This document shows, piece after piece, positions 22,811 through 62,086 of a DNA stretch of 64,000 nucleotides. The notes beneath the pieces were generated by a model that was not told where the DNA came from, ran no database searches, and worked only from the letters and a program-made list of their open reading frames with translations. Source of the stretch: Pristiophorus japonicus. Taxonomy: Eukaryota. The stretch covers positions 496,001-560,000 of the forward strand of contig NW_027251843.1 of NCBI RefSeq assembly GCF_044704955.1, written 5' to 3'. A program made the position numbers and the translations under genes. Numbering within the stretch: position 1 is the first letter of the stretch; every line of letters starts with the position of its first letter.

Positions 22811-23134
22811 ATACCCTTACCCAACAGGGCACTGATGGTGCCGGAGAACCAGCCTGAGCCTCAGATCCTGAACTGCCCACTGCAACACTGGACTGAGAAA
22901 CAGAGGGAGCAGAGTGTGTGCAGAGAGGTGACTGGCTGGTCCCTTGGTCCCGGAGCCCCCTCCCAGTCCTCCCCCACCCTAGTCTCCCCGGATGCCCTGT
23001 CCTTCCAGGGAACCCCGCCGCTGCCGATTGCGTTGGACCCCCCGTTCTACAAAAGGTCAGGCCCCGATCACCGCACCTCCCCACTCCCCTACCAACCCTC
23101 CACCACCCCCCCAGGAGCTGGAGCTCACACACAC

Positions 23135-23299
23135 ACCCCTACAGATGGTGCTGGGTAACGGTAACAGTCACACACACACACACACACACACACCTGCAGG
23201 TGGTGCTGGGGAACAGTCACACACACACACCCGCAGGCGGTGCTGGGTAACAGTCACACACACACACACACACACCTACAGGCGGTGCTGGGTAACAGT

Positions 23300-23330
<31 letters not shown>

Positions 23331-23545
23331 GCAGGCGCTGCTGGGTAACATTCACACACACCCCTACAGGCGGTGCTGGGTAACAGTCACACACACCCCT
23401 ACATGCGGTGTTGGGTAACATTCACACACACACACACCCACAGGTGGTGCTGGGAAACATTCACACACACACACACCTCCAGATGGTGCTGGGTGACAGT
23501 CACACACACACACACACACACCACACCTACAGGTGGTGCTGGGTA
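23135..23545. repeat. Compound minisatellite CCT(A/G)CAGG(T/C)GGTGCTGGGTAACAGT(CA)n, ~10 units
   Basis: Visible directly; contains several CAGGTG/CACCTG/CAGATG E-boxes. Confidence 0.85.
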
Positions 23546-35015: not shown

Positions 35016-35537
35016 GCACATTTCACTTCCTCTTCCCCGCCCTCCTTCTCCCCCTCCTTCTCTCTCCATTCCTCCATCTCTCTCCCCCTCTCGCTTCCCC
35101 ACAGACTCCCAGGTGCAGCACACTGAAATGCAGAATAAACCTCCCTGTGCCCTCCCCCACCAATGGATGTTAACCCTTGACCCCAGAGCATGCCTTCTGG
35201 AGTAAGGCCCCATTCCCCACAGTGGCCACCCCTTGGCCTCTCTCAGTACATTGGTTGTTTATTGCCCAATTAAGGGCCGTTCTGTGCTGTGGGCCTATTC
35301 TCTGTGGGGACCGGTTTGGACAGAAAGCTCATTTCATGAAGGCCCAGCAGAGGGAGGAGATCCTCACCCCATCAGTTTGAGCTGGAGCAACAGGACAGGG
35401 TCTGACCCACTGCTCCATCCTGTCCGCTCAGAACATCTTCGAATCCCTTCCCCTTCCATGGCCCCGCTCCAGATCAGGGTATTTTTACCGGGATCAGGTG
35501 ACGATGATCCTACATTTACAACAAGAAGGGTCCACAC

Positions 35538-35980
35538 TCCATGTCCCACTGGTCCTCCAATCGGCTCCAGGCAATATGGCTCCTTCCTATTGGTACCACA
35601 ATAGGGCCCAGGAATCATGGCTCCTTCCTATTAGTCCCCCACTTGGACCCAGGCAACATGGTGCCGTCCTATTGATCCTCCAATAGGGACAATGAAACAT
35701 GGCTTCTTCCTATTGGTTGTCCAATAGGGATCATGAAACATGGCTACTTCCTATTGGTGCCTAATAGGGACAAGGAAACATGGTTCCTTCCTATTGGTCC
35801 TGCAATAGGGACCAGGAAACATGGCTCCTTCCGATTGGTCCTTCATTAGGAATCAGGGAACATGGCTTTTTCCTATTGATCCTCCAGTAGGGACCAGGAA
35901 ACATGGCTCCTTCGTATTGGTCCACCAATAGGCACCAGGAAACGTTGCTCCTTCCTATTTGTCCTATTGGACAGGGAAAC
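35538..35980. repeat. ~41-bp palindromic minisatellite CATGGCTCCTTCCTATTGGTCCTCCAATAGGGACCAGGAAA, ~10 copies
   Basis: CATGG recurs at 35657, 35698, 35739, 35779, 35820 and onward. Confidence 0.9.
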
Positions 35981-36325
35981 ATAGAAAATAGGTGCAGGAG
36001 TCAGCCATTTGCCTCTTTGAGCCTGTACCACCATTTAATAAGATCATGGCTGATCATTCACCTCAGTACCCCTTTCCTGCTTGATCCTTTTAGCCGTGAG
36101 GGCCATATCTAACTCCCTTTTGAATATATCCAGTGAACTGGCATCAGCAACTCTCTGCGGTAGAGAATTTCACAGGTTAACAACTCTCTGAGTGAAGAAG
36201 TTTCTCCTCATCTCAGTCCTAAATGGCTTACCCCTTATCTTAGATTGTGACCCCTGATTCTGGGCTCCCCCAAAATCGGGAACATTCTTCCTGCATCTAA
36301 CCTGTCCAGTCCCATCAGAATTTAA
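35978..36325 (-). mobile_element. CR1 3' fragment
   Basis: GAAACATAGAAAATAGGTGCAGGAG tail in reverse orientation. Confidence 0.8.
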
Positions 36326-40500: not shown

Positions 40501-42207
40501 TGCTACTGTTAGGGGGCCTATAGATTATGCCCACCAGTGACTTGTTCCCTTTATTATTCCTTATCTCCACACAAACTGTTTCAACATCCTCATCATTTGA
40601 GCCAATATCATTTCTCACTATTGCAGTGATTCCATTCTTTATCAACAGAGCTACCCCACCTCCTTTTCCTTTCTGTCTGTCCTTCCGGATTGTCAAGCAC
40701 CCCTGAATATTTAGTTCCCAGTCCTGGTCACCTTGCAACCATGTCTCTGTAATGGCTACAGATCATACCCATTTGTATCTATTTGTGCCATCAACTGATC
40801 TATTTTGTTACAAATGCTACGTGCATTTAGACAAAGAGCCTTTAAATTTGTTTTTTAACCTTTTTTCCTGCTCGTTTCCTCTCTCCTTCAAACTCACTTT
40901 ATTTTTGCTTTCTAATTCCAGCTTTACTCCCCTCCCTACTGAATCTATTTTCAGGTTCCCAGCCCCCTGCCCAGCTAGTTTAAACCCTCCCCAACAGCAC
41001 TAGCAAACCCTCCCCACTGCGAGGATATTGGTCCCAGCTCTGTTGAGGTGCAACCCGTCCGGCTTGTGCAGGTTCCACCTCCCCCTGAAACGGTCCCAAT
41101 ACCTCAGTAAACTAAAGCCCTCCCGCCTGCACCATCTCTCCAGGCATGTATTCGTCTGCTCTATCCTCCTGTTTCTGTGCTCACTGGCTCATGGCACTGG
41201 GAGTCATCCAGAGATTAGAGAATAATTAGAGATTAGAGATACTGAGAGAATAAATTCCTCCTCATCTCAGTTTTAAATGGATGGCACCTTATTCTAATAT
41301 TATGCCGCTTAGTTCTAGTCTCCCCTATCAGTGGAAACATCCTCTTTGTATCCACCTTGGTCGATAAGGTCACCTCTCATTCTTCTGAATTCCAATGAGT
41401 AGAGGCCCAACCTACACAACCTTTCCTCATCCCTGGAATCAACCTAATGAACCTTCTCTGAACGGCCTCCAAGGAAAATATATCCTTTCGTAAATATGGA
41501 AACCAAAACTGTACGCAGTATTCCAGGTGTGGCCTCATCAATATCCTGTATAACTGTAGCAAGACTTCCCTGCTTTTATACTCCATTCCCTTTGCAATAA
41601 AGGCCAAGATTCCATTGGCTTTCCTGATCACTTGCTGTACCTGCACACTAACCTTTTGTGTTTCATGCACCAGGACCCCCAGGTCCCGCTGTACTGCAGC
41701 ACTTTGCAATTTTTCTCCATTTAAATAATAACTTGCTCTTCGATTGTTTTCTGCCAATGTGCATAACCTCACACTTTCCAACATTATACTCCATCTGCCA
41801 AATTTTTGCCCACTCACTTAGCCTGTCTATGTCCTTTTTGGAGGTTTTTTGTGTCCTCCTCACGCATTGCTTTTCCTCCCATCTTTGTATCATCAGCAAA
41901 CTCGGCTACGTTACACTCGATTCCTTCTTCCAAGTTGTTAATATAGATTGTAAATAGTTGGGGATCCAGCAGCACCCCACTAGTTACTGATTGCCAAAAC
42001 GAGAATTAACCATTAATCCCGACTCTCTGTTTTCTGTTAGTTAGCCAATCCTCTATCCATTCTAATATATTACCCCCAACACTGTGAATTTTACCTTGTG
42101 CAGTAACCATTCATGTGACACCTTGTCAAATGCCTTCTGGAAGTCAAAATACACAACATCCACTAGTTCCCCTTTATCCACCCTGCTCGTTACATCCTCA
42201 AAGAATT
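37547..42207 (-). mobile_element. Multiple CR1 and other non-LTR fragments
   Basis: RT ORF 38050-38739, endonuclease fragments 39244-39462 and 40358-40738, RT 41377-42207. Confidence 0.8.
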
Positions 42208-45200
42208 CCATAGTTCAAAACAAATACAGGATCATTAATTTTAATTTCGCGTGACACATTTGCGCTATCATGATATATACTTTGTTGAAGCCACCTGCTC
42301 TCTCCCTGTTCGTGTTGATCAGGGTGAAGTAACGAGAGCCTTGCCTTAAATGCCCTTTTCATGAACAGTTCAGCAGGTGGAATCCCAGTGAGCAAGTTGG
42401 GTCTCGTGCGGTAACTAAGCAGGACTCGGGATAGGTGAGTCTACAGTGAGCCTTCAGCTACCCTCTTCAAGGTCTGCTTGATTGTTTGCACTGCACTCTC
42501 TGCCTGACCATTGGATGCCGGTTTGAACGAGGCAGATGTGACATGTTTGATCCCATTGCAGGTCATGTACTCTTTGAACTCGGCACTGGTGAAACACGGC
42601 TCATTGTCACTCACAAGGACATCAGGCAGGTCGTGCGTGGAAAACATGGCCCGCAGGCTTTCAGTGGTGGCAGCGGACGTGCTTGCCAACATTATCTCAC
42701 ATTCAATCCACTTGGAGTATGCATCTACAACCACAAGGAACATTTTTCCCAAGAATGGACCTGCATGAACCCTAGACTTTGGTTTGGAGGGCCAAGACCA
42801 TAAACTTAGTGACGCCTCCCTGGGTACACTGCTGAACTGTGAACATGTGTTACATTTGTGCAGGCAGGACTCTAAGTCTGCATCAATACCGGGCCACCAC
42901 ACGTGGGATCTGGCTATCGTTTTCATTATTACAATGCCTGGGTGGGTACTGTGGAGACCACTAATGAAAGTGTCCCTGCCCTTTTTTGGTACCAATACCC
43001 GATTACCCCACAGAAGTCAATCTGCCTGAATAGAGATTTCATCTTTGCGCCGCTGGTATGGCTTTATTTCTTCCTGCATTTCTAATGAGACACTGAACCA
43101 GCTCCTGTGAGCACACAGTTTTTTTTTACTAAGGACAGTAAGGGGTCCTGGCTCGTCCAGGTTCTAATCTGCCGGCGGTAACAGGTGATTGCTCACTCTC
43201 GAATGCTTCCATTACCATAGCTAAATCTGCAGCTGTGCCATTTCCACCCCTGTGGTGGGCAATGGCAGCCTACTGAGAGCATCGGCACAGTTTTTTGTGC
43301 CTGGCCTGTGGCGGATGGCATAGTTGTATGTGGACAACGTGAGCGCCCATCTCTGGATGCGGGCCGATGTATTCGTATTTATCCCCTTACTTTCAGAAAA
43401 GAGGGATATCAGTGCCTTATGATCAGTTTCCAATTCAAATCTGAGCCCAAACAGATATTGATGCATTTTCTTTACCATATAAACACACGCTAACGCTTCT
43501 TTTTCAGTCATGCTGTAGGCCCTCTCAGCCTTAGACAGACTTCTGGATGCATAAGCAACCGGTTGTAATTTTCCCAGATTCATTAGCTTGTTGCAATACA
43601 CACCGACACCACATGACGACGCATCGCATGCGAATAACAAACACTTACATGGATCATATGCTCAAACAAATTGCTTGTGTTGTAACAGTTTTCTAAGTTT
43701 TACATAGGCATTTTCTTGGCTTTTGCCCCATACCCATTCGCCTCCTTCATGCAGTAAAGAGTGCATTGGTTCTAACAGTGTGCTGAGACCCGGTAAGACG
43801 TTACAAAATTAGTTCAGGAGTCCTAGAAACGACCACAGCTCCGTCAAGTTCTGTGACCTTGGTGCGTTCTCGATTGCCTCCATCTTCGCGTTGGTGTGCC
43901 TGATGCTGTCCGCCGCGATTCTTCTCCTCAGTAATTCCACTTCAGGCGCCAGGAAAATTCACTTCGAGCATTTAAATCCGGGTCACCCTTGATTAAGCCG
44001 ACTAAGAACCTCCTCCAGGTTCTTCAGATGTTCGACTGTGTCCCGACCTGTGACCAAGATGTTGTCCTGGAAGAGCACGGTGTGTGGGACTGACTTCAGT
44101 AAGCTTTCCATGTTTCTCTCGAATATCGCCGTGGCTGATCGAATCCCAAACAAGCATCTATTGTAAATGAAGAGACCTTTGTTCATGTTGATGCAGGTGA
44201 GGCCCTTCGATTATTCCTCCAGCTCCTGCGTAATGTAGGCTAAGGTCAAGTCCAGCTTTGTGAATGTCTTTCCTCCCGCCAGTGTCGCAAAAAGGTCATC
44301 TGCCTTTGGTAGCGGGTATTGAACCTGCAGGGAGGAACAATTGATAGTTACTTTGTAATCACCAGAGATTTTGACGGTGCCATCTCCCTTGAGGACTGGA
44401 ACAATCGAACTGGCCCACTTGTTGAATTCGATCGATGAAATGATGTCCTCTCGTTGCAGCCTGTCCGGCTTGATCTCCACCCTCTCTCTCATCATGTATG
44501 GTACTGCTCTCACCTTGTGATGGATGGGTTGCGCCCCCGGAATTAGGTGGATCTGCACTTTTGCTCCTTGGAACTTCCCGATACCTGGTTCGAACAGCGA
44601 GGGGAACTTGTTTAGGACCTGGGCACACGAAGTGTCGTCGACAGGCGAGAGCACTCGGACGTCGTCCCAGTTCCAGCGTATCTTCCCCAGCCAGCTCCTG
44701 CCGAGCAGCGTGGGGCCATCGCCCGATACCACCCAGAGTGGCAACTTGTGCACCGCTCCATCATCGGAGACCTTTACAGCAGCACTGCCAATTACGGGAA
44801 TCAGTTGCTTTGTACAAGTTCTCAGTTTAGTGCGAATGGGAGTCAGGACTGGCCTTAAAGCCTTGCTGCATCACAATTCATCAAAAGTCTTTTTGCTCAT
44901 AATGGACTGGCTCATGCCCGTGTCCAGCTCCATTGACACCAGGAGTCCATTTAATTCAACATTCAGCATTATCGGGGGAATCTTTGTGGTAAATGTGTGC
45001 ACCCCATATACCTCTGCCTCCTATGTCTGAGGCTCTGGTTTGTCGTGATCTGCCGTGGATCTGTCCTCTCTGCAACATGGTGGTTTGCAGGATTAGCAGG
45101 GTTTGCAGCTCACCTGCACAAACATTGGAGATGTCCCATTGTTCCACAGCCCTTGCAAACATATCCTTTGAAGCGGTATGAATGGAAACAATGATAACCC

Positions 45201-46137
45201 TCGCAGCGCCAACAAGGTGTTAATGGCCTTGCATTCATCATCCTTGATGGTGGACTCTGAGACAACTGCGGACGTGCAGCTGCAGGCATGTGAGGCCTGC
45301 CTTGTACGTTATCATTCGAAAACAACATTACTTTATTCACAGTACTTGTAGCAGCACTCGAGTGCTGAGAGATTTGTTTGTTATTGTCACTGGTGGCGAT
45401 GAACGCCTGTGCTATCGCTATGGCTTTACTCAAGGATGGGGTCACTACAGTCAAAAGTTGCAAAGTAATACTTCATGGCCAATGTCAAGTACAAAGAAGT
45501 CCCTGAGCATGTGCTCCAAATGTCCTTCAAATTCGCAATGTCCTGCAAGGCGTCTTAGCTCGGCGACATAGCTCGCCACTCCCTGGCTTTCAGATCTCTT
45601 GGCACGTGTAGAACTGGTACCTCACCATCAGAACGCTTTCCTTCGGGTTAAGATGCTCCAGGATCAGTGTGCACAAATCTTTATATGATTTCTCTGTGGG
45701 TTTCACTGGAGCAAGCAGATTTTTGATGAGGCCATACGTTGGAGCCCCGCAAATAGTAAGGAGAATCACCCTTCGTTTGGCAGCGTTCGCTTCTCCTTCC
45801 AGCTCGTTGGCCACGAAGTATTGGTCGAGTCGCTCCACGAAGGTTTCCCAATCATCTCCTTCCAAATATTTCTCCAGGATGCCCACTGTTCTCTGCATCA
45901 TTGCAGGTGGGTTCGTTCGCTGTTGTAGTGTATGAATAAAGAGTCTGACCAGATACTGTGAGCTCAAAGTAAAGTGTGACCGTAGTCTTTTATTGCAGGT
46001 CTCCAGAGTGCCTCTCCAGCCTGTGAGGCCTCCTTAAGTACAGGTGCTCCCAAGGGATTGTGGGATCCCTTGGGACTCCAAGGGATGAGCCCTGTGGTGG
46101 TAAACAAGGTATTTACAGGTATACATATATTACAACA
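42208..46137 (-). mobile_element. 5' part of a Mag-clade Gypsy element (5' LTR 45921-46137, decayed gag-PR-RT-RH-IN)
   Basis: DWETFVERLDQYFVAN gag, FTKLDL, FQDNILV, CDASS, HPGI..VWWPG and VSDNEPCFTS motifs. Confidence 0.9.
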
Positions 46138-47094: not shown

Positions 47095-48705
47095 TGTAAG
47101 GGGCGTTTTTTGGGGGGATCATCTTTCCCTTCTGACCTTATATGAGCGGTTTCGAACCGCTCCCACACCCTTGGTTCTCGACTCTGGAATTATGAAGGGA
47201 CTGTGACAGACTTGGACAGACAATCGCTTTCAAGGTCGGAAGCAGGTATGGCTTTATTGTGTCTGAAAGGAAGTAAAAGGACACACCTTTAATAACACAC
47301 ACAGAATAGTAATACCAATACACCCTGAGGGGTACAACATATTGAATAAATTGTCAACATACGGCCTTTGGGGAAAAGAATACATGGGGTAAAGAGGAGA
47401 ATGCAGATACATTTACACAAGTTATCCCAGCCTCCCCCCTCCCAATTCGCCGAACTAACTAAGTTATAGCTCTGGGGGTTCAGGGGCGATGCTCACCAAT
47501 CCTTTTCACAGTTGCCGGTGAATCGCGGTTTTGGGGTTCGCTGCACTTGGCCTTCGAGGTGAGCTGCACCCCGGACAGAGGAGAGGACTTCGGACTGCGT
47601 AGTCTTCAGTTGGGGTGAGTCCATTGATGCGGTAAATTGCGTTTTGGATGTATGGGGTAAGTACCCACTTTCTTTGGTTTGGAATAGTTTTAACTAGTCC
47701 TTTTAAGTAATTTCTCACCCGTTGGTTATTCAGAAGTAGATTGTAGAGTGGAAATAAATGTTGATTCTTCGGTTTTTGCTGAGTTGGTTGCAGTTGGTCG
47801 TTTCACTGGTTGTGGTGGCCCAGGTTGTCAATTTGGTTGCTGACAACCTTTCGTTTCGTGGGCCTCTTGCTGTCAGCGTGCTCGGTCGGTCCTTGATGAT
47901 TTCTTGTAGTTTTCTCCACTACTCCATTTCTTCACTCCCCACCTCCTGCTGCTTGTGTTCTTTTCCTTGTAAAACTGGGAATAGATATACCCCAAAAAGG
48001 CTTCCTTCCCTCCCACCAAATCTGGCCCAGCTCTTTGTTTCAAGGGAGCTGCTCATTAGTTTTAAGCTTTCTTCTTTGTCAGAATTTGTCGGGCTTGTTC
48101 AGCAGTAATTTGGTTATGATGTGATAATGTGGAAAATCACCGGTTGGCATTGTCGGAGCAGTGTTTAAACTCTTGAACCATTGGGCTGGGCCCGTGAATT
48201 CTATCGGTCTATTTGCACATGCATGCCACGAATGGTCTCCGGTGATTAGCCTGATAGCTCTTGATACGTTTATTCTCACTAGGGAGTGAATTTTTATGTC
48301 TCACAGTTCTTGTTAGTTATCGATCGACTCATTCTCCCAGACAAATTGAAGACCCAGTTCCTGAGTGAAGTCCCACCCTCTGTTCTGGCAGTCTCTTCCA
48401 ACATGCTTCTTTAGAGATCTTAAACTTGTAAAGCTCTTAGGTATCTTCCTCAGAGTTTTTCCGAGGATACCAAAATGTTCATCGATTTCCAAATTAAATT
48501 CCCTTTCCTATGAGTCCAAACATTGGGGGTTGGGGGGGGGTCTCCATGAATGCATCCCCTTTTATCCCCTGCAGGCCTCATCTGCCCTTTAAACTCATTT
48601 GTGTCCCGAGGTTTTTCCTTCCATTTTAAAAGTCCAGAAAGGGATTCTTCTCCTCTGCAGGGGAAAGGTACAAGGAATCTTTGCAAAATATTGGTAAATT
48701 CTACA
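47095..48705 (-). repeat. 3' LTR (~1.6 kb)
   Basis: Starts TGTAGAATT after PPT AGCAGGGGAG, ends CCCCTTACA; AATAAA at 47253-47258. Confidence 0.85.
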
Positions 48706-49262
48706 CTCCCCTGCTGTGATACCATTCCACTTATGATACCATCTTCTAGGTGAGCAAAGTTCCTGACTCTCAAGAGACAACCTTCCACGTAGATTAACTA
48801 AGCTGTTCCCAAAATATGCATTACACTTATGCAACATCACCATAGATACACACTTTTCCCTTTACAGGTACAAACTTTTTACATTTACACCCTCCCAGCT
48901 TGGAGGGGGTTTCATCACTACAATTGCATTTCAGCACAGTTACATTTCATTTCAATTACATTATATTCACCAGCATGTAGGCAATGTACAACCACATTAC
49001 AGAAGGAAGAACACAGATTAAACTAAAACAACATCAATTGGTCTCCGGGTGGCCTGGTTAATCCCTGCCAGGCCCATGCTTTCCCCGCAGCCGGTGAGCT
49101 GGAGACCCTTGTCTCTGGGACAGCTTGTTGATACTGCTCCTGTGAGATCCTCATCTCTGGGAGGCGGCTGGCTGGTGGTCCCTACTCTGAGCGGCCTCTG
49201 TACTTCTGACCTTTGGCCTTCCCTGTCGGGCTACCCTTCTCCTAGGGTAGAATCGCTGAGGC

Positions 49263-51365
49263 TCAGATGCCGTACACCATGGTATCTTTGGACGTGGTGT
49301 ACGGAGGGTCCTTCTCAGGGCTTGGGTTACTGGGAGTGCGTCCGAATCCCAAACGATGGATGGGACAGCCCCCCCAGTAGTGCAATTCACTGCCCCTATA
49401 GGCACGGTTTCTCAGCTTGCCACATTTTCTGTGGGCCCTCCGCCGTCGGGGAGGGTCCCTGTCCTGAGGACGGTTCACCCCTCCCGGCTGCCCTCTGTGC
49501 TTGGCTGACCCTGGGTTGTAAAGCTTGCACTGGTTGATGTGGAACCACTTAGTACGGCGGGGCAGCTTTATGGCATAGACCATCGGGCTTGCCTTGTCGA
49601 CAATGCTGTATGGCTCCATATATAATGCTTCAAAAATCCCTTCCCGAGCATAGTTCCTCACCATGACCTGATCCCCTTTCTCCCATTCGTGGTGTTTGCT
49701 GGGTTCTAGCAGCAATCGGTTACTCCGATGCTGTCTGCCCATGTTACTAGCAGCCTGCCAGTGAATCTGTTTGTGGTGTTCAAACAGGTTCCTGACAAAC
49801 CTCTCTGAGCTGACCTTCTGTGAGGGGCTAGGACATGGGTGGGGGTCTGCATGATCCGGCCAGTCATGAGCTCGTCTGGGGAATACCCCGTGCTCTTTGA
49901 CTGGCTGGGCTCGGATCCCCATTAGTTCCAACGGTAAGACCTCTATCCACTTTTGGGGTGAGTCTCCCGTCTCCTTTCTTTAATGGTGCGGTTTAAACGC
50001 CCCACAATACCCGATGACTGTGGGTTGTGGGCAGCGTGCCATTTCCCCTCAATGCTGAGCACCTTAAGGGTTGCCTGCATTACTTGCCCGGTGAAATGAC
50101 TCCCCTGGTCCGACTTCACATACTGTGGGAGTCCCCACCGGGAGAACACTTTCCTCACTAGAATCTTAGCTATCCCTAGTGCGGTGGCTGTTCAGCAGGG
50201 GAAGGCTTCAACCCATTTTGAGAACACATTCACCAGGACTAGGCAGTATTAGTAGCCTCCCTGGGCAGTGGGTTAGGGGCCTGGTGTAGTCCCGATGTGA
50301 CTGCCATGGTCCCTCTACCCTCCTGACGTGTCCTCGGGACACCTTCCTTTTCTGGGGGTCAGGGTTGTTCACAGCACACACCAGGCAGTTCGCACAGAAC
50401 TCGCGGACATCCTCCCTGAGTCCCGGCCACCATCCTGCCTGTTCCACCCGTTGCCAGGTGGTCTCAGGCCCGGGATGTCCCGCTCCTGGACCCTCATGGG
50501 CCAGTTTTAGGAATTCCCTCTGGTGCTGCTGTGGCACGACCCATTGTCCCTCTTTAAACAGCATGCCTTCCTTAACGGTAATGGCTGCTGTGCCGTACGG
50601 ACCTTCTACTCTCTCTCCTCTAGCTAGCGCATTCAGGACAGCTTTCAGGACTGGGTCCTGTACCTGAACTGTTTTTAAATCCGGGGCCAAAGCTATCCCT
50701 GTACTCACTGCTGCTATGCGGCCGGTGTCATAGGGGTCCCAGAACTTTCCCGTGTGGGCACCTTCTTTGGCCAGTTTCTCAGCCTGTTGGTTTCCCTCTG
50801 CAGGGGGATCGGATTTTGAATGGGCTTTTCCCTCTTCCCCCAGTGCTGTCATGATTTTCTCCAGCAGGGTCTTGATTGGCAGGGGTCTCCCGTCAGCGGA
50901 CGTGTATCCGCGATGGGACCAGAGAGCCAGGTACTCCGTACACGAATTGCAGGTGAACATACTGTCCGAGCAAATCGTGTACGGGGTAGGGAATTCCTCG
51001 GGGTGGGTCACCACGTACATTATGGCAGACAGTTCAGCATGCTGGACGCTCAAGGTGCTGAGGAGCTTGATTGCCAGTGCAATACCTGCCCTTGGGTCAT
51101 AGACTCCGCACCCTGTGAGTCGCTCGCCAGCAGATACCGTGCTGGACCCGTCCACGTAGATGTCCCGGCCTGTAGGGTGTAACCCAGCCCGATGGCCAAT
51201 GTTCACCTCCCATACCCCTTCTATGGAGCACCTGTGGGCTTTCCCTGGGTAGACTATGTTGGCTGCTCACTGTCCCGTCCTTAATCCTCCCATCTAGGAG
51301 CATCTGAGTAGGTGTGTGGTGCGTTAGGCGTGTTCGAGGAGACCTTCCCGTGAAGATCAAGGATC
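49263..51365 (-). pseudogene. pol 3' half: RNase H and integrase
   Basis: IYVDGSS..QHAEL..ICSDS..GNQQAE; HEGPGAGH..CLVC zinc finger; SDQGSHF, PQSSGIV; GPY/F-like tail. Confidence 0.85.
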
Positions 51366-51370
51366 TTTTC

Positions 51371-54300
51371 TGTTGTGTCCTTACACACTGCAGCAAATCA
51401 ACACGAGGCACATACTGGAGACAAGGTCACTCTGTGACCTGTACCTTTATTCACAGGACCAAGAAGTGATGACCCTGCGTGGAACCTCCCTTTATATACC
51501 TGGATGACCAGGTGTGGAGTGTCTCCCACAAGTTCACCACTGTGGTCAAGGTGTGCATTTCTCAGGTATATTCAGTGTGCAGTGTTGTTACATAAAGGTT
51601 ACAGTTATGTGAAGGTTACAAACATGACATCACCTCCCTCCAGAGTCTTTGGGTCAAAGATTGAGTCTTTCAGGCGGTCGACGCTCTCTCGTGGAGCGCC
51701 GCAGTTGGGGCTCTGGTTGTTGAGCCTTGGCATCCGTCTTTGTCGCCTGTGGTGATTCCGGCTTGTCTGGGCTGACCGCAGAGACTGTGCATGCTGCTGA
51801 CGGTTCCTGTTGCTCATTCACTGGCAGCGGTGTGGGCAGCATCTCATGATTTTCCTCAGGTTCCTCAGTGTCCATGCTGAACTTTTTTTTTACTTGGCCC
51901 TATTCTCCTCTTTACCAATTATAGTAAACTCGAGCCACTTGGGCCCCACAGCGTGATTAGGAATAAATGCAGGGTCATCAATTTCTATCCATCTCCCCTT
52001 TGAGTTACGGTCATGGCACTCATTTTGGGATTGGCGCTTGCCCTCAACAATGTCTGAAGACTGGATGAATGAGGGACAGCCGAGTTTTTAGTGTGGGTTT
52101 CATTAGTAGTTCTGCTGGCGGGACCCCCGTGAGCGAGTGCGGTCGGGACCTGTAGATGGTATTGAAGGGAGGGTCCTTGAATCCGGAACATGCCTTGCTT
52201 TATGATTTGGACTGCACCTTCCGCCTGGCCATTGGCAGCCGGCTTGAACGGCGCTGTCCTGACATGTTTGATGCCATTACCCGACATGAGCTCCCGGAAT
52301 TCTTAGCTAGTGAAACACGGGCCGTTGTCGCTAACTAGGATGTTCGGCAAGTTGTGGATCACAAAGACCACATGCAGACTCTCCACTGTGGTGGATGTTG
52401 TGCACAAATTCAATATGATGCACTCGATCCATTTCCAGTACGCATCAACAACAATGAGTAACATTTTTCCCATGAACGGGCCAGTGTAATCTCCGTGAAT
52501 ATGTGACCATGGCTTGGTGGGCCAGGGCCACGGGCTGAATGGGGCCTCCCTGGGGCATTGCCCAGCTGGGCACATGTCGTGCACCTGCGAACACAGTGTT
52601 CCAGGTCTGCATCAATTCCCAGCTACCATACATGTGACCGGGCAATGGCCTTCATGAGCACGATGCCTGGGTGCTTGCTGTGGAGTTCCCTGATGAATGC
52701 TTCCCAACCCCTCTGGGGCATGACTACCCGGCTGCCCCATAGTAGGCAGTCAGCTTATATGGAGAGTTCATCCATCCGTCTGTAAAATGGTTTGACCTCT
52801 TCAGGGCATGTTCCGTGTGCGAGCGCCCAATCCCCAGTCAGGACACACTTCTTAATCAGGGATAGGAGGGGATCTCTGTTCGTTCAGGTTTTGATCTGGT
52901 GGGCTGTGATGGGGGAGCCTGCGCTGTCAAAGGCATCGACAGCCATGACTATCTCTGCGCTTTGCCCCGCTGCCCCCTCAGTGGTGGTCAGTGGAAGCCT
53001 GCTGAGCGCCTCAGCGCAATTTTTGGTGCCTGGCCGGTGCCATATGGTGTAGTCATATGCAGCCAGCGTGAGAGCCCATTGCTGTATGCGAGCTGACACA
53101 TTGGCATTGACAGATTTGCTGTCAGACAACAGGGATGTTAACGGCTTGTGGTCCATTTCTAACTCGAACCTTCTTCTAAAACGGTACTGGTGCATCTTTC
53201 TCACCCCGTAGACACATGCGAATGCTTCCTTTTCAACCATCCCATATGCACTTTCTGCTTGGGAGAGCAACCTGGAGGCATAAGCCACAGGTTGGAGTCA
53301 GCCCTCATCATTCCTCTGTGCAACACATACCCAAACCCATAGGATAATGCATCGCATGTCAAAAACAATTTCTTAGAGGGGTCGTACAGGGTCAATAACT
53401 TATTGGAACAAAGCAGGTTCCGCACCCGATTGAAAGCCCGTTCCTGACAGTCCCCGCAAAACCAATCACAACCCTAACGCAGGAGCACGTGTAGCGGCTC
53501 CAACAATGTACTGACGTTCAGTAGAAAGTTCCCGAAATCGTTCAATAGTCCCAGAAATGAACGCAACTCTGATATGTTGCCGGGCCTGGGCGCGCGACGG
53601 ATCGCCTCCATTTTGGAATCGGTGGGCCAGATCCCGTCTGCGGCAACCCACCTGCCCAAAAACTCGACCTCTGGGGCAAAAAACACACACTTGGACTTCT
53701 TTAGTCGCAGGCCTATGCGGTCCAGTCAGCGTAGCACCTCCTCCAGGTTGTGGAGGTGTTCCTCAGTGTCTCGACCCGTGATAAGGATGTCGTTCTGAAA
53801 TACAATTGTTCCAGGGATTGATTTGAGCAGGCTTTCCATGTTCCTTTGAAAGATAGCGGCTGCTGAACGAATGCCAAACGGACACCTGTTGTAGACAAAC
53901 AGCCCCTTGTGCATGGTGATGGTGGTCAGTAGCTTGGAGTCTTCGGCTAGTTCCTGGGTCATGTAGGCCGAAGTGAGGTCCAATTTGGGTGAACAGCTTG
54001 CTGCCTGCCAGCGTGGCAAAAAGATCCTCCGCTCTCGGAAGCGGGTATTGGTCTTGAAGGGACACTCGGTTGATGGTGGCCTTGTAGTCGGCACAGATCC
54101 TGACCGAGCCAACCGTTTTTAGAACAGGGACAATGGGGCTTGCCCAGTCACTGAATTCAACAGGCGAAATCATGCCGTCTCTTAGAAACCTGTCCAACTC
54201 ACTCTCAATTTTCTCCCGCATCACATACGGCACAGCTCTGGCTTTGTGGTGCACTGGTCTGGCATCCGGGGTGATGCGTATCACTACTTTGGTGCCTGTG

Positions 54301-56059
54301 AAAGTCCCGACTCCAGGTTGAAATAATGACTCGAACTTTTGTAGGACCTGTGAGCATGAACTTCGCTCCACAGATGAAATGGCATGCACATCCCCCCCAT
54401 TTCCAGTTCATCTCGGCTAGCCAGCTCCTCCCTAAAAGCGCGGGACCATTTCATTTCCTGGGACAATCCAGAGTGGCAGCCGCTTCTGAGATCCATTATG
54501 TGTGACCACCAACATTGCACTGCCTAGCACTGGGATGATCTCTTTGGTGTACGTCCGTAATTGTGTGTCAATGCATTCTAGTTTGGGTCTGCTAGCTCTG
54601 AGTGGCCACAGTTTCTCGAATTGTTGGACACTCATAAGTGATTGGTTGGCCCCTGTGTCCAGCTGCATGCGTACCGGGATGCTGTTTAACAGTACTCTCA
54701 TCATCATAGGGGGCGTTTTTGTGTATGAGCTGTGGATGTTTGCCACCTGGACCCGCTGATCTTTAGCATCCATTGCGGTGTCCCAGGCATACCCCTGCCT
54801 TGCAGACCCCTCTGTGGTTCATCCACTTCGTAAACCAGCCTCGCTGCGGGCTTCCTGCACATCCTGGCTAAATGTCCACTCAAGTTTCAATTTCTGTAGG
54901 TAAATTGCTGAAACCTGCAGGTCTTCGCAGCATGTCTGCCCGCGCACCTCCAGCTTGAGCTGAGATTGTTGTGAACAAAAGAGCTGTTACCAGGCATTCC
55001 ACTCTGATTGTCTCTTTGATTACTCTTGAGCAATCTGTTTGTAGGTGTCAGTGGTCCCATCCCGGGACGTAATGTCGCTTGTGATGGTGTAAATGTCCGT
55101 TCAACCTGCCATTGGCTCTATTGTGGACCCACTCTAGAGTCTGTTTACTGCCTGGTTGGTGTTGAATTGCCCTTGCCTTCCTGTGGGGTCCTGAGTCGCG
55201 TTTACTCCCTGCTCCATTGCCACGTTGGGAGCAGAGTTGCGCGTGTATATGATCTTGGCTCCTCGCCCACCATGATGGTTTGAGCCATCAATGCCGCCGC
55301 TTCCAAGGTCAAGTCCTTGGTCTCAATTAGCTTCCTAAAAATCCCGGCATGACTAATGCTCTCAATGTAGAAATCCCGTAACATCTCCCCGCTCTGTGAA
55401 CTTACAGAGGCTGGCCAAGCGCCGAAGGTCCGCGACGAAGTCCGGTATGCTCTGCCCTTCCCAACATCGGTGCGTATAGAATCGGTGTCGGGCCATGTGT
55501 ATACTACTCACCGGTTTGAGGTGCTCACCGATCAGTTTACTGAGCTCCTCGAAGGTCTTGTCCACCGGCTTCTCGGGGGCGAGCAGGTCTTTCATCAGCG
55601 TGTACGTCCCAGGTCCACAGCTGGTCAGTAGATGTACCCTTCGCTTGTCAGCCGCTGCCGCTCCCAGCCAGTCCTTCGCGACAAAGCTCTGCTGGAGCCT
55701 CTCAACGAAATCGTCCCAGTCCTCACCAACACAGTACCGTTCCTCCGTGCTGCCGGTGGCCATTCTCTTGAGTCGTTGATTCCCGTTTCTCGTCGCCAAA
55801 TGTTGTGTCCTTACATATTACAGCAAATCAACACGAGGCACATACTGGAGACAAGGTCACTCTGTGACCTGTACCTTTATTCACAGGACCAAGAAGTGAT
55901 GACCCTGCGTGGGACCTCCCTTTATATACCTGGATGACCAGGTGAGGAGTGTCTCCCACAAGTTCACCCCCTGTGGTCAAGGTGTGCATTTCTCAGGTGT
56001 ATACAGTGTAGAATGTTGTTACATAAAGGTTGCAGTTATGTGAGGTTACAAACATGACA
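51371..56059 (-). mobile_element. Nested full-length Mag-clade Gypsy (LTRs 51371-51629 and 55801-56059), decayed
   Basis: 259-bp TG..CA LTRs, 5-bp TSD TTTTC, PBS TGGCGACGAG (tRNA-Ser-like), PPT GGAGGGAGGTGA, LDTGA, FQNDIL and VSDNGP motifs. Confidence 0.93.
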
Positions 56060-56064
56060 TTTTC

Positions 56065-57723
56065 ATTTCCAAATGTTTAGCGAGGTGGTGTCTCTCACAG
56101 TTGGTGTACCTGTTCTCCACATCTGTGAGGATCCTGGAGGAGTAAACCACCGGTCTCAGCTGGCCGTGCCGCTCTTGAAGCAGCACTGAACTCAAACTGT
56201 CCCCGCTGGCTGCCACCTCCAGGAAAACTCCTTTCCTACATCTATCGCTCCTAAGGCTGGCGTGGTCTGAAAGTCCTTCTTGAGCTGATTAAATGCTGCC
56301 TCGCAACCCTCATCCCAGTACCACTCTACACCCTTGTGTCGGAGCCTGAGCAGAGGGGCTGCGGTGGCTGCATAATCCTCAATGAAGTCTCTGCAGTACC
56401 CGGTGAGCCCTAGAAAGGATCTTACCCCTGTCACTGTGTTGGGGGCTAGTAACTCCTGTACTGCCTCCCTTCTAGCCTTATCTATGGCCCTTTCCCCAGC
56501 GCGCACAGTCAGCCCCAGGAATTTGAATTCCTTCTGGCCGATCTGTGCCTTCTTGGGGTTTACTTTAAACCCTTCTTCTTTTAGCAGCTCCAGCAGCTCA
56601 GCCAGCAGTGGGCCATGCTCCTCCCCCTGATCGGTGAACAGGAGCAGGTCATCCACATACTGCATCAACTGCTGGGGTCTGCTAAAGCCCTTTAAACAGT
56701 TCACCATACATTGGTGAAAAATGCTGGGGCTGTTGTGGAAGTCTTGGGGAAGACAGTTCCACGTGTATTGTTGGCCCTTAAAGGTAAAGGCGAACTTGTA
56801 TTGGTCCTCCCGTTTTAAAGGAATGGACCAAAACCCATTTGAAATGTCCAGCACTGTGAAAGTGGTCGCGGATGCTGGAATACTCCCTATGAGATCCGCT
56901 ACGGCTGCTACAGTGGGTGCACAGGCAGGGATATTCTTATTTAGTACTCGATAGTCCACGGTGGCCCTCCATGAGTTGTCCGGTTTCTTAACCGGCCACA
57001 GTGGTGAGTTCACATGTAGCTATCGGTCTTAACACCCCTTGCTCTACCAGTGATCCCAGCGCAGTTGTCAGGTCTGCCTTTGCCTTCCTGGGGAAGTTAT
57101 ATTGCATCTGTGGTCGGGTCATGGGGTTCCCTTTTATACCAACTTCCACCCCCGTTACCCTGCCACAGTCATGTTTGTGGGTGGCGAAGGCTGCAAGGTG
57201 TGCCCGTACATATGCCTGGTACTCCACTGGGGTGCTACTGACCAGTAATTCCAAGTCATAACCCTCCTTTGGCTTCATTACACAACGTTCCCTTGGCCCC
57301 TTTTTTTGGGATCACTGTCACCTCACCTTCCCTGTCAGTCCCTATGACTCCCCATAGACAGTGGTTCCTGAGATCCACTAGGATCTGGTGGCAAATGATA
57401 AAATCAGCTCCCAGGATCCCTTTTCCCTTCTGCTCCCATTTTATCAGGACACACTTCCATTTGGTTTTGAGTGTCCCTAACTGAATGGTGAGCGGGATGG
57501 AAAACGAACCAGTTTGCTCATTGCCTGTGAACCCCACTAGACTGTACGGGACCCCGTTTGATAGAGGTGAGGTAGCTGGGTTATCTGCATATACAAGGGT
57601 GCTGGAAGCACCAGTATCTAGCAGGTAGGTCCCTTTCACTTTCTCCACCTCCATCGTAACGCACGGTCTCTTCCAGGCATCGTACTCTAGGGAACACAGG
57701 TACACAGGCTGCACTGGCCTTAG
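56065..57723 (-). pseudogene. pol 5' half: protease, RT and degenerate RNase H/tether
   Basis: YLLDTGAS; NSPLWPVKKPD..DYR..LDISNGF..LPQDFHNSP..YVDD; RPVVYSSRIL..YTNCE. Confidence 0.88.
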
Positions 57724-59520
57724 TCATGCATCTGGGTGGGTTGGAGCAGAGGGTTTTACCGTACTGACTGCTGGACCGGTTGCGATAGCTACTGCTCCCT
57801 GTCCGTTTATGAGTGTCTGTAGGGTGGCTACGAGTATCTCATATGTGTCGGGTGTTCCTGCCCCGGCCTTACGGGCTGGGGCTGGAGTGGCCTTTCCCTT
57901 AGTTTCTTTCCAGGGGTTCCTACAGTCCTTCCTCCAGTGCCCACTTTTCACACACCCAAAACACTCGCCCCCTTTGTGGGGAGGGTTCCCACCTTCCTGA
58001 TGCCACTCTCTCTTGCCTTGCTGGATTTAGTGTCATGGACCTTCCCTTTAGAGGAGAGCTCCTCTGTCCATCCACCATTCCGGTAAGCCAGGGTCAACTG
58101 CCTGACCACTGTCTCCTCGGTGGTTCTGGGATCTCTTGGATCGAACCAGACCTCGGCTTTTGCCTTTACTCCAGGTAAGCTGTTTGCCACCAGGCTGCGG
58201 AGCCAGTGAGCCAGCTCGTTAGGGGTCAGGTGGGCCCGGTCAAGAACCCCACTACAGGCCCTTTCGTAGACTGGCCACAACCTGTCACCGAAAACCTGTG
58301 GAGTCTCCCCATAAAGCTGCACTGTTTTCTCCACTCGGGAGAAAGGACTCCTGTCGTTCATACCCATGGCCTCTAGAACCTCCGCCTTAACCGTAACGTA
58401 TGTGTTTTGCCCCTTTCTGCTGTCTGCAGAGAGGGAATGGCACAGCAACAGCTTCGCCTGCTCCGAATCATCGCACCCGTTAATATCCCGTGTGTTCCAC
58501 TTCCAGGAAGTGACCCAGGGATCCCCCTGTTGGGTGAGCTTACTTCGGTGGCCTATCTTAGCCCTCAGTTTTTGGGGGTCATGGGGGACTACGAAGCTGT
58601 TTTCTAGGGGTCCTGCTGCCCCATTGGCGTCAGGCGGGCCAAACCTCTGCTGCCGGACCGGGTGCATTGGCCCTGGTTCCGGCCCTTCTTGTATTGGCTC
58701 GCCCGCTTCCCCCTGCTGCCAAGCCGAGTTAAAACTCGGGGCCGCCGGTGTTGGTAGTTCGCAATCCTTGCCTGCCCCGCACTCTGGCTGACACCCCTGC
58801 TGCTCTGGGCCGTTCCCGGGAGCTGCAGGCAGTGACTGAGGGGTTGCTTGCACTACCAGGTGTTCCTGGGCCAAACCCGGGTTTATCAGGCACACCATGC
58901 CTTTAGCCGGGATAGAGCAAGGTTCAAGCTTTGGATCTGCTGCTGGCAGGGGCCGTGGTCTCCTGCCTCAAATTCCCTGGTACTGGCTACCTTATAGGCT
59001 ACCTGAATGTCTCTCACCCTCTCCCCGTATGCTTTAACTTGCTTGGCGAGGCAGGAATTCTCTTCTCGCAACGTCAGTTCACTATTCTTGGCTTCAATAA
59101 TCTGACACTGCAAAAGGTCCAGTTGGGTTTTGTGCCTTTCTTTAGTGAGGTCTCTACTTTCCTTCAACTGCCCCACCTCTGTTCACAGCCTATCCCCAAC
59201 TGTGGCCCTTGCATTGGACCTCTCTTCTGCCTGCTTCAATACTTCCTTTAATTTCTCATTCTCCTCATCGAGAAGCCGGATCTGTTGCTGAAGGCAAATT
59301 AGCCAAATGACCTTCTCTATCGACCTTTTATGGTCCTTGCTCTTGGTCCATTGAGCTGCAGCATCTTCTGGATGCTCAGCATACAATAGATCGAGTACCC
59401 ACTCCTTAGCCACATTTACCCTCTTAAACACATGCGAGGAAATCCCCTCTTCCATTTTGCTTCTTTTCCTGAGACCAGTCTCTCTCTTATCACATCCCTT
59501 GCCCCATTTGTGGTCGCCAT
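57724..59520 (-). pseudogene. gag (disrupted), N-terminal coiled-coil, C-terminal CCHC knuckle CFGCVKSGHWRKDC
   Basis: ORF pieces 59183-59455, 58886-59176, 57948-58898 and 57724-57951. Confidence 0.8.
59503..59519 (-). promoter_or_regulatory. Primer-binding site TGGCGACCAC (tRNA-Arg(TCG)-like)
   Basis: Starts 3 nt after the LTR terminal CA; complementary to a ...GTGGTCGCCA tRNA 3' end. Confidence 0.65.
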
Positions 59521-59522
59521 TA

Positions 59523-62086
59523 TGTAAGGGGTGGTTTTCGATGGGGTGTCAGCTTTCCCTTCTGACCTTATAGAATGGTTTTGAATCGCTCCCATACCTT
59601 TGGTTCTAGACTCTGGAATTATGAAGGGACTGTGACAGACTTGAACAGACAATCGGTTTCAAGGTAGGAAGCAGGTACGGCTTTATTGTGTCTTAAAGGA
59701 AGTAAAAGGGCACACCTTTAATAACACACACAGAATAGTAATACCAATACACCCTGAGAGGTACAACACATTGAATAAATTGTCAACATACGGCCTGTTG
59801 GGAAAAAAATACCGCTTAAACTCTAAATGGGGTAAAGAGGAGAATGTAGACACATGTACACAAGTTATCCCAGCCTCCCCCTCCCAATTCGCCGAACTAA
59901 CTAAGTTATAGCTCTGGGGGTTCAGGAGCAATGCTCACCAATCCCTTTTGACAGTTGCCGGTGAATTGCGTTTTTGGGGTGTGGGCCAAACCCCGGACGG
60001 AGGAGAGCACTTCCGACTGCATAGTCTTCAGTTGGGGTGAGTCCGAAGATGCGGTAAGTCTCGTTTTGGATGTGTGGGGTAAGTGCCCACTTTCTTTGGT
60101 TAGGAATAGTTTTAGTTAGTCCTTTTAGGCAATTTCTCACCCGTTGGTCATTCCGAATTAGATTGTAGAGTAGAAATAAATGTTGATTCTTCGGTTTTTG
60201 CTGAGTTGGTTTCGGTTGGTCATTTCGCTGGTTGTGGTGACCTGGGTTGTCAATTTGGTTGCTGACAACCTTCCATTTCATGGGCCTCGTGCTCGGTCGG
60301 TCCTGGATGATTTCTTGTAGATTTCTCCACTACTCCATTTCTTCACTCCCCACCGCCTGCTGCTTGTGTTCTTTTCCTTGTAAAACTGGGAATAGATATA
60401 CCCCAAAAAGGCTTCCTTCCCTCCCACCAAATCTGGCCCAGCTCTTTGTTTCAAGGGAGCTACTCATTAGTTTTGAGCTCTCTTCTTTGTCAGAATTTGT
60501 CGGGCTTGTTCAGCAGTAATTTGATTATGATGTGGTAATGTGGAAAATCACCGGTTGGCATTGTTTAAATTCTTGGGCCGTTGGGCTGGGCCTGTGAATT
60601 CTATCGGTCTATTTGCACATGCATACCAATAATGGTCTCCGGTGATTAGCCTGATAGCTCTTGATGTGTTTATTCTCACTAGGGAGTGAATTTTTATGTC
60701 TCACAGTTCTTGTTAGTTATCGATCGACTCATTCTCCCAGACAAATTGAAGACCCAGTTCCTGAGTGAAGTCCCACCCTCTGTTCTGGCAGTCTCTTCCA
60801 ACATGCTTCTTTAGAGATCTTAAACTTGTAAAGCTCTTAGGTATCTTCCTCAGAGTTTTTCCGAGGATACCAAAATGTTCATCGATTTCCAAATTAAATT
60901 CCCTTTCCTATGAGTCCAAACATTGGGGGTTGGGGGGGGTCTCCATGAATGCATCCCCTTTTATCCCCTGCAGGCCTCATCTGCCCTTTAAACTCATTTG
61001 TGTCCCGAGGTTTTTCCTTCCATTTTAAAAGTCCAGAAAGGGATTCTTCTCCTCTGCAGGGGAAAGGTATAAGGAATCTTTGCAAAATATTGGTAAATTC
61101 TACACTCCCCTGCTGTGATACCATTCCACTTATGATACCATCTTCTAGGTGAGCAAAGTTCCTGACTCTCAAGAGACAACCTTCCACGTAGATTAACTAA
61201 GCTGTTCCCAAAATATGCATTACACTTATGCAACATCACCATAGATACACACTTTTCCCTTTACAGGTACAAACTTTTTACATTTACACCCTCCCAGCTT
61301 GGAGGGGGTTTCATCACTACAATTGCATTTCAGCACAGTTACATTTCATTTCAATTACATTATATTCACCAGCATGTAGGCAATGTACAACCACATTACA
61401 GAAGGAAGAACACAGATTAAACTAAAACAACATCAATTGGTCTCCGGGTGGCCTGGTTAATCCCTGCCAGGCCCATGCTTTGTGCGGCCTGATAGCCGCC
61501 TGGATGCTAGGGTTTCCCCGCAGCCGGTGAGCTGGAGACCCTTGTCTCTGGGACAGCTTGTTGATACTGCTCCTGTGAGATCCTCATCTCTGGAGGCGGC
61601 TGGCTGGTGGTCCCTACTCTGAGCGGCCTCTGTACTTCTGACCTTTGGCCTTCCCTGTCGGGCTACCCTTCTCACAGTTCTTGTTAGTTATCGATCAACT
61701 CATTCTCCCAGACAAATTAAATACCCAATTCCTGAGTTAAGTCCCCCACCCTCTGTTCTGGCAGTCTCTTCCAACATGCTCCTTTAGAGATCTTATACTT
61801 GTAAAGCTCTTAGCTATTTTCCTCAGAGTTTTTTCGAGGATACCAAAATCGTCATCGAGTTCCAAATTAAATTCCCTTTCCTATGAGTCCAAACACTGGG
61901 GGGGCGGGTGGGGGGCAGGGGTCTCCATGAATGCATCCCCTTTTATCCCCTGCATGCCTCATCTGCCCTTTAAACTCATTTGTTTCCCAAGGTTTTTCCA
62001 TCCATTTTAAAAGTCCAGAAAGGGATTTTTCTCCTCTGTGGGCGAAAGGTACAAGGAATCTTTGTGAAATATTGGTAAATTCTACA
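59523..62086 (-). repeat. 5' LTR containing a ~970-bp duplicated block (~60700-61672)
   Basis: 59523-61104 aligns to 47095-48705, 61105-61672 aligns to 48706-49240, and 61670-62086 aligns to 48299-48705. Confidence 0.85.

Follow-up and report, generated by a model that had tools for sequence, protein, structure and literature searches.

A stretch of 64,000 nucleotides (nt) from Pristiophorus japonicus (contig NW_027251843.1; hereafter the window, in whose positions all coordinates are given) carries on its minus strand, from 62086 to 47095, a retrovirus-like element in the order long terminal repeat (LTR), gag, protease (PR), reverse transcriptase (RT), a degenerate RNase H (the tether), a second RNase H (RH), integrase (IN) and LTR. 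An earlier, sequence-only reading had described this order, with a coiled coil and CCHC motif in gag and a YVDD motif in RT, and Pfam searches and translation recovered all of it. Likewise, the distance of about 550 bp given between the IN stop codon (49263–49265) and the polypurine tract (PPT) was measured as 547 bp, and the 1.6-kb LTRs were found as described, with the refinement that the 5′ LTR is split by an insert of ~980 bp. Very probably, this element is a dead, twice-damaged copy from an env-deleted subfamily of a canonical endogenous retrovirus (ERV) of basal, snakehead retrovirus (SnRV)-like grade, which likely spread by intracellular retrotransposition in germ cells and whose lost envelope gene (env) is predicted to have encoded an F-type protein.

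Anatomy and damage of the element

The presence of two RNase H domains was corroborated in an uninterrupted natural copy of the family, in which the tether and the second domain scored separately (RT_RNaseH, 9e-18; RNase_H, 9e-20). The tether (peptide RPVVYSSRILTDVENRYTNCE at ~56085–56150) does not carry the Gypsy-type carboxylates but VAAS, ERH and THH instead, and it is predicted to be structural, with the second RNase H being catalytic. In the window copy, this second domain has a short in-frame deletion compared to other family copies. Among solved structures, the RTs of murine leukaemia virus (MLV)/XMRV and foamy virus ranked above that of Ty3 as matches to the RT, which has an open frame at 56192–57019 and an N-terminal piece in a different frame. 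The Pfam signals for the coiled-coil N-terminus and CCHC motif of gag were weak (E 0.001–0.016).

Searching the 5.9-Gb genome with the RT yielded 140 scored matches with 91–100% identity, and the nearest named relatives of the element are shark and skate proteins, in line with the cartilaginous-fish element proposed earlier. The LTRs of the family have TG..CA termini, with a target-site duplication (TSD) of 4 bp in 14 of the 22 measurable pairs. The commonest primer binding site (PBS) of the family (23 identical copies) is complementary to the 3′ end of a tRNA-Arg(CCG) gene from the same genome, and reverse transcription is predicted to be primed by tRNA-Arg. In family copies, gag and pol share one frame across a TGA codon, which terminates gag in 44 of 45 pattern hits (window 57724–57726) and is directly followed by CTA in 40. 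TGA-CTA constitutes a read-through context, and Gag-Pol would be produced by read-through at this position. A gag-frame ATG of family copies lies two bases past the 5′ LTR and overlaps the PBS (window 59500–59522), so the leader would be nearly absent unless translation starts at a later ATG.

The window copy itself is dead, with frameshifts and stops in both gag and pol (including the integrase reading frame) and the insertion of a 4.7-kb Gypsy element that splits the tether. This nested Gypsy, which presumably belongs to the Mag type, was confirmed to have a single RNase H, and it carries its own 260-bp LTRs (diverged by 4.6%) and a TSD at 51366–51370 and 56060–56064. An older second Mag-type Gypsy (window 42200–46100), ~65% identical to the nested one, adjoins the element on its left.

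The insert that parts the 5′ LTR is a copy of the element's own 3′ end, and its segment 61105–61673 is 100% identical to 48706–49241 (0 differences in 535 bp), while the LTRs of the window copy are 6–7.5% apart outside of this homogenised block. Given this identity and its absence from all four paralogous loci, the insert appears to be either a very recent recombination or an assembly artefact. A tandem of three LTRs across 59523–62086 was considered as well and rejected, as the paralogous loci have a single plain 5′ LTR. These loci stem from a segmental duplication cluster, in which the locus, including the nested Gypsy and flanks, is repeated four times within 3 Mb of one contig (95–99% identity), so that the element and its flanks exist in at least five copies. 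In two of the duplicates, a long interspersed element (LINE) occupies the place where the 3′ LTR should be. Table 1 lists the features of the window copy. Elsewhere, the window contains tandem repeats of 57 bp (15668–16537), ~37 bp (23119–23521) and 41 bp (35518–36003).

Table 1. Features of the element in the window, in order of position (all on the minus strand).
Feature	Position	Strand	Basis or remark
3′ LTR	47095–48705	-	1611 bp, TG...CA; self-BLAST and junctions; termini same in family copies
PPT	48706–48715	-	Position same in family copies
Remnant between IN stop and PPT, env deleted	48716–49262	-	Join at ~49041–49046; mapped on env-bearing copy
IN (H2C2 at 50361–50537, core, SH3-like C-terminus)	49263–50540	-	Pfam (Integrase_H2C2, 1e-18), three-frame translation
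Second (acquired) RNase H	50757–51161	-	PF00075 (RNase_H) E 3.5e-12; YVDGSS/HAEL/SDS/GN
Tether (degenerate RNase H), C-terminal part	51200–51365	-	Family frame
Nested Gypsy (presumably Mag-type), foreign to the retrovirus	51371–56059	-	Single RH; 5-bp TSD; outside retroviruses in tree
Tether, N-terminal part	56060–56260	-	
RT	56192–57120	-	PF00078 (RVT_1) E 8e-34, YVDD
PR (DTG)	57256–57723	-	In frame behind gag TGA; aspartyl protease Pfam E 1.5e-4
gag (coiled coil, capsid-position region, one CCHC at ~57919–57963)	57724–59520	-	Several broken frames
PBS	59502–59519	-	Diverged variant of family tRNA-Arg site
5′ LTR, inner part	59523–~60690	-	
Duplicate (~980 bp) of the element's own 3′ terminus, spanning IN tail, remnant, PPT and LTR start	60691–61672	-	Inside 5′ LTR
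5′ LTR, outer 414 bp	61673–62086	-	Flanks agree as TSD at 3/4 bases

Deletion of env and amplification of the env-less form

Sixty family copies were fetched, 20 for the similarity of their 3′ ends and 40 ranked by RT score, the latter made up of 20 from the top rows, 10 with long frames and 10 from the last rows. Two of these first 60 copies contained a 2.5-kb stretch where the window copy has nothing, and this stretch proved to be env; the long post-IN stretches of other copies consisted of LINE or Gypsy pieces in five and of a short insert without a 90-aa open reading frame (ORF) in two. A genome search with the env-region stretch gave 150 scored matches, and the env region was present in all 20 that were fetched, i.e., eight from the same family (90–95% identical) and 12 from a sister family. 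This sister family is abundant, with 75–85% DNA identity and 85–89% RT identity to the family under study, and had env in 12/12 of the copies that were fetched through env.

Among the 40 copies chosen by RT score, 35 share a common 2.3-kb deletion, one has env and four were uninformative. The deletion runs from just upstream of a splice-acceptor-like tract and signal-peptide-like start to the last env codons. Its identical junction was found at 450 genomic sites, as opposed to 44 sites with the undeleted env end (a pattern that fits seven of the nine env copies checked), corresponding to a ratio of about ten to one. Because one identical junction recurs at 450 sites while env-bearing copies are 90–95% identical, env was lost through a single deletion in one provirus. 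From the earlier proposal that the element lacked or had lost env, the loss thus stands, whereas an element that never had env does not. Similarly, other copies indeed carry env, as had been foreseen as a possible objection, but the deletion is not private to the window copy and instead defines the majority subfamily. The window copy no longer displays the shared junction, since mapping on an env-bearing copy showed that an extra small deletion took it away; among the four paralogues of the locus, three have kept the standard junction and one has lost it together with the window copy.

LTR pairs of env-less copies have a median divergence of 1.7% (22 pairs), compared to 4.7% for env-bearing copies (6 of 13 pairs recovered, including one pair without TSD at 14%; p=4e-5), i.e., the env-less form continued amplifying after the measured env-bearing copies had inserted. 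The proposed course of events would start from an infectious retrovirus with an F-like Env that entered the germ line, after which one provirus would have lost env by the single 2.3-kb deletion. With gag, PR, RT, RNase H, IN, PBS and PPT intact, this provirus was likely capable of copying itself in cis, and the loss of env may have confined it to the cell and favoured germ-line reinsertion, with env-less copies eventually exceeding those of the parental form roughly tenfold. The window copy would later have received the Gypsy insertion in its tether, and would then have been duplicated with its flanks into the at least five copies mentioned above.

Two considerations temper this scenario. The LTR-dated samples were picked by similarity and not at random, and the LTR divergence of the window copy (6–7.5%) exceeds the env-bearing median, indicating that the deletion is old and that both forms overlapped in time. 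Env-less ERVs copying in cis have reportedly reached higher copy numbers after env loss (as described in a "superspreader" paper). Mouse intracisternal A-particle (IAP) elements and other env-less ERVs share with this family the loss of env followed by higher copy number (here 450 vs. 44 sites), although the host is here a cartilaginous fish and the lost gene encoded a non-canonical Env type. IAP has been listed as a case of env loss with intragenomic spreading (PMC10536682), and in-cis copying has been described for env-less ERVs (PMC10435555, PMC10536682).

The main rival explanation accepts the same family and deletion, but has the env-less genomes spreading in trans: env-bearing copies would supply the Env for the particles in which these genomes reinfect the germ line. 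Such complementation is known as a route of spread (PMC10435555), the env-bearing copies of the same and sister family are numerous, and the ages overlap (6–7.5% for the window copy vs. 4–6% for env-bearing copies). Nevertheless, most env-less pairs (1.2–2.8%) are younger than every measured env-bearing pair (at least 4.1%), and env-less copies retained long gag and pol frames, as in-cis copying predicts. We therefore regard such trans-complementation as unlikely and favour intracellular copying in cis.

Envelope type of the parent family

The Env encoded by the env-bearing copies features a furin site, a long heptad helix, a Cys-rich region and a C-terminal transmembrane (TM) segment, while a motif scan of the family Env found neither of the gamma-type motifs ISD and CX6CC. 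Its language-model neighbours are Baculo_F and Fusion F0 (0.92–0.93). Moreover, it is 27% identical over 543 aa (E 1e-51) to the Env of a second shark family, one member of which matched PF00523 with E 1.7e-6 and another with E 0.018. A joint profile of the shark Envs aligned with a natural lokiretrovirus Env in HHalign (probability 80%, E 1.3e-5) over 319 collinear columns with matching cysteines, and profile hidden Markov model (HMM) scores against two lokiretrovirus Envs were 7.9 and 9.6 bits above all 500 block shuffles each. The signal peptide, RXKR site, coiled coil and TM segment that typify lokiretrovirus Envs are present as well, with the likeness to PF00523 being seen only via the related Envs. 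Together, these similarities make it highly probable that the family Env is F-type (i.e., a paramyxovirus-like fusion protein), and suggest that it is a class I fusion protein of common descent with lokiretrovirus Env.

Further ERV families of the same genome, the second shark family among them, have an F-like Env (150 scored Env matches), and the RTs of four copies are sister to class I retroviruses (96/94).

Other results speak against an F-type assignment. Neither the family Env nor its profiles retrieved anything relevant from Pfam or PDB, and both AlphaFold models of Env were of low confidence (predicted local distance difference test score, pLDDT, of 35). The PF00523 matches of the related Envs fall under the curated cut-off, and the best of them was selected from a scan of the whole genome for PF00523 (genome E 0.0055). 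The third ORF might accordingly encode a captured membrane protein, or an envelope that does not share ancestry with F proteins, with its F likeness arising from a shared coiled-coil and TM composition. Besides the absent direct matches and poor models, this alternative could draw on the modest identity to lokiretrovirus Env (20–21%) and on language-model scores of 0.9 being reached by 4–10% of shuffled proteins. However, the alignment with lokiretrovirus Env runs past the helices through the beta and Cys-rich part with matching cysteines, composition-keeping block shuffles reached the real score in 0/500 cases (twice), and the related shark Envs match two regions of PF00523. An unrelated origin thus seems improbable, and an F-type Env remains the preferred assignment.

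For SnRV Env the evidence is mixed. In HHalign it aligned with the narrow shark Env profile with E 0.13 and with the wider one with E 3e-4 (probability 39%), and the top language-model match of its C-terminal half (7640–9200 of the SnRV sequence) was Fusion F0 (0.91). On the other hand, it did not rise above shuffles by hmmsearch and gave E 0.36 directly against lokiretrovirus Env. We lean towards SnRV Env being F-like as well, and treat this as a lead only.

Phylogenetic position and origin of the envelope

The feature that had been flagged in the sequence-only reading, i.e., an env-less element with two RNase H domains, is real and was correctly described, but it was wrongly placed in a sister lineage of retroviruses. 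In RT and RT+tether trees (LG+G4), the window element fell within canonical retroviruses (99/99), with lokiretrovirus-type RTs as their sister (100/99) and Gypsy outside. Under a mixture model, 35 of the 53 rows gave the same picture (canonical 97, lokiretrovirus 99), and an approximately unbiased (AU) test rejected a clade of the family with lokiretroviruses (p=0.0047). The RT position together with the two RNase H domains also sets the element apart from an ordinary single-RH Gypsy, as anticipated earlier. The closest tree neighbours of the family are amphibian and coelacanth ERVs (80/98; 98 in the mixture model). The predicted protein of a frog relative displays an Ig-like segment after the integrase, which may derive from a host gene that was captured or else result from a fused gene model.

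Lokiretrovirus rows were labelled by RT motifs identical to those in the PMC7947760 supplement, and two metagenome loci found with one of these rows showed the same RT motif together with an Env matching PF00523. The row used for SnRV shares 99% identity with a viral contig of 10,688 nt and agrees by eye with the SnRV RT of the supplement. In by-eye comparisons with published supplements, the RT motifs DISNGFWS, LPQGF and PTV of the family agree with SnRV and the elephant-shark CmiERV lineage I, and the family RT is unlike the lokiretrovirus motif (PFGY.NSPAEFN). The RT and RH motifs thereby correspond to those of SnRV-like ERVs (clade Huo).

This placement has weaknesses as well. The family forms no supported clade with SnRV, which sits on a separate basal branch nearer to class I, so that "SnRV-like" is a grade label here. 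Furthermore, the trees were built without foamy viruses, ERV-L, class II and Odin, and a short RH tree set the family beside lokiretroviruses (Shimodaira–Hasegawa-like approximate likelihood ratio test, SH-aLRT, 87, not starred), while RH and IN trees gave no resolved placement of the family. Scans of viral contigs with the window RT and with lokiretrovirus Pol returned no match, and no exogenous form was seen. On balance, the trees and motifs place the element with canonical retroviruses, where it joins basal ERVs of SnRV-like grade from fish, amphibians and coelacanths. Its position in the RT trees, the tether followed by an acquired RNase H, and env between IN and the 3′ LTR in the family (although deleted in the window copy) are those of Retroviridae.

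Lokiretrovirus membership was the first idea once env-bearing copies had been found, and was ruled out by motifs, trees and AU test. The broader proposal of a shark member of the lokiretrovirus/Odin lineage that lost env, which could cite the dual RNase H, the Env homology, the above RH grouping and the gap left by lokiretroviruses being reported from 0/3 chondrichthyan genomes (Wang and Han 2021, PMC7947760), is largely refuted and very improbable, given the opposing RT+tether trees, AU test and RT motifs, and given that a lokiretrovirus Pol query of this genome listed (among at least 53 scored matches) only the present family, at 33–36% identity. The family thus shares with lokiretroviruses the dual RNase H and, by profile alignment, an F-like Env, but differs in its RT. 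Odin retrotransposons, which have been found in sea anemones and described as the sister of lokiretroviruses (Wang and Han 2022, PMC9040795), have the same outward anatomy (gag-pol only, dual RNase H, no env). They differ in that the absence of env is here a demonstrable secondary deletion with env-bearing copies at hand, and in that the family RT lies inside canonical retroviruses; the exclusion of Odin runs via its published position.

With SnRV-like ERVs (SnRV and CmiERV lineage I), the family shares its RT motifs, tether plus acquired RNase H, a Gag that has a coiled coil and a single CCHC, a stop codon between in-frame gag and pol, and a basal position among canonical retroviruses. Its RT+tether identity amounts to 38% with SnRV and 43–51% with the amphibian and coelacanth ERVs. 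Unlike SnRV-like ERVs, its majority subfamily is env-less and its LTRs measure 1.6 kb. Its env is F-like, whereas in CmiERV lineage I the ISD and CX6CC motifs of a gamma-type env could be read by eye in the supplement. ERV3/ERV4 elements are likewise retroviruses of neither class I nor II, but their TSDs are 5 bp long and they lack a zinc finger (Chong et al. 2014, PMC4299795), in contrast to the mostly 4-bp TSDs and one CCHC found here.

The env-less anatomy itself is ordinary, as env loss is common and SnRV-like ERVs are already known from cartilaginous fish, with CmiERV lineage I of the elephant shark published as clustering with SnRV (Han 2015, PMC4422223). What appears unusual is the pairing of a canonical Pol with a lokiretrovirus-type Env, in at least two shark lineages. 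Literature searches (covering few subscription journals and not Repbase, where the family may be named) found no paper on an F-like env in SnRV-like or shark ERVs, and found an F-type Env in print among vertebrate retroviruses only for lokiretroviruses.

The family illustrates cleanly, in a shark, that amplification can follow the loss of env, and cautions that an env-less element with dual RNase H such as Odin can be a secondary loss. Env screens based on gamma motifs overlook such families. According to PMC9040795, canonical and lokiretrovirus Envs share no detectable similarity, and independent env gains are preferred. A canonical Pol with a lokiretrovirus-type Env in shark lineages would contradict the no-similarity premise of these independent gains, and the question of origin becomes testable, i.e., whether an F-like Env is ancestral or env moved between lokiretrovirus and canonical lineages in fish. 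Tentatively, and with somewhat less than even confidence, an F-like Env may have been ancestral to all vertebrate retroviruses and been kept by lokiretroviruses, both shark families and SnRV, with the gamma-type Env replacing it later. If true, this would overturn the preferred model in which env was acquired twice independently, and the main reason for keeping lokiretroviruses apart from Retroviridae would be gone.

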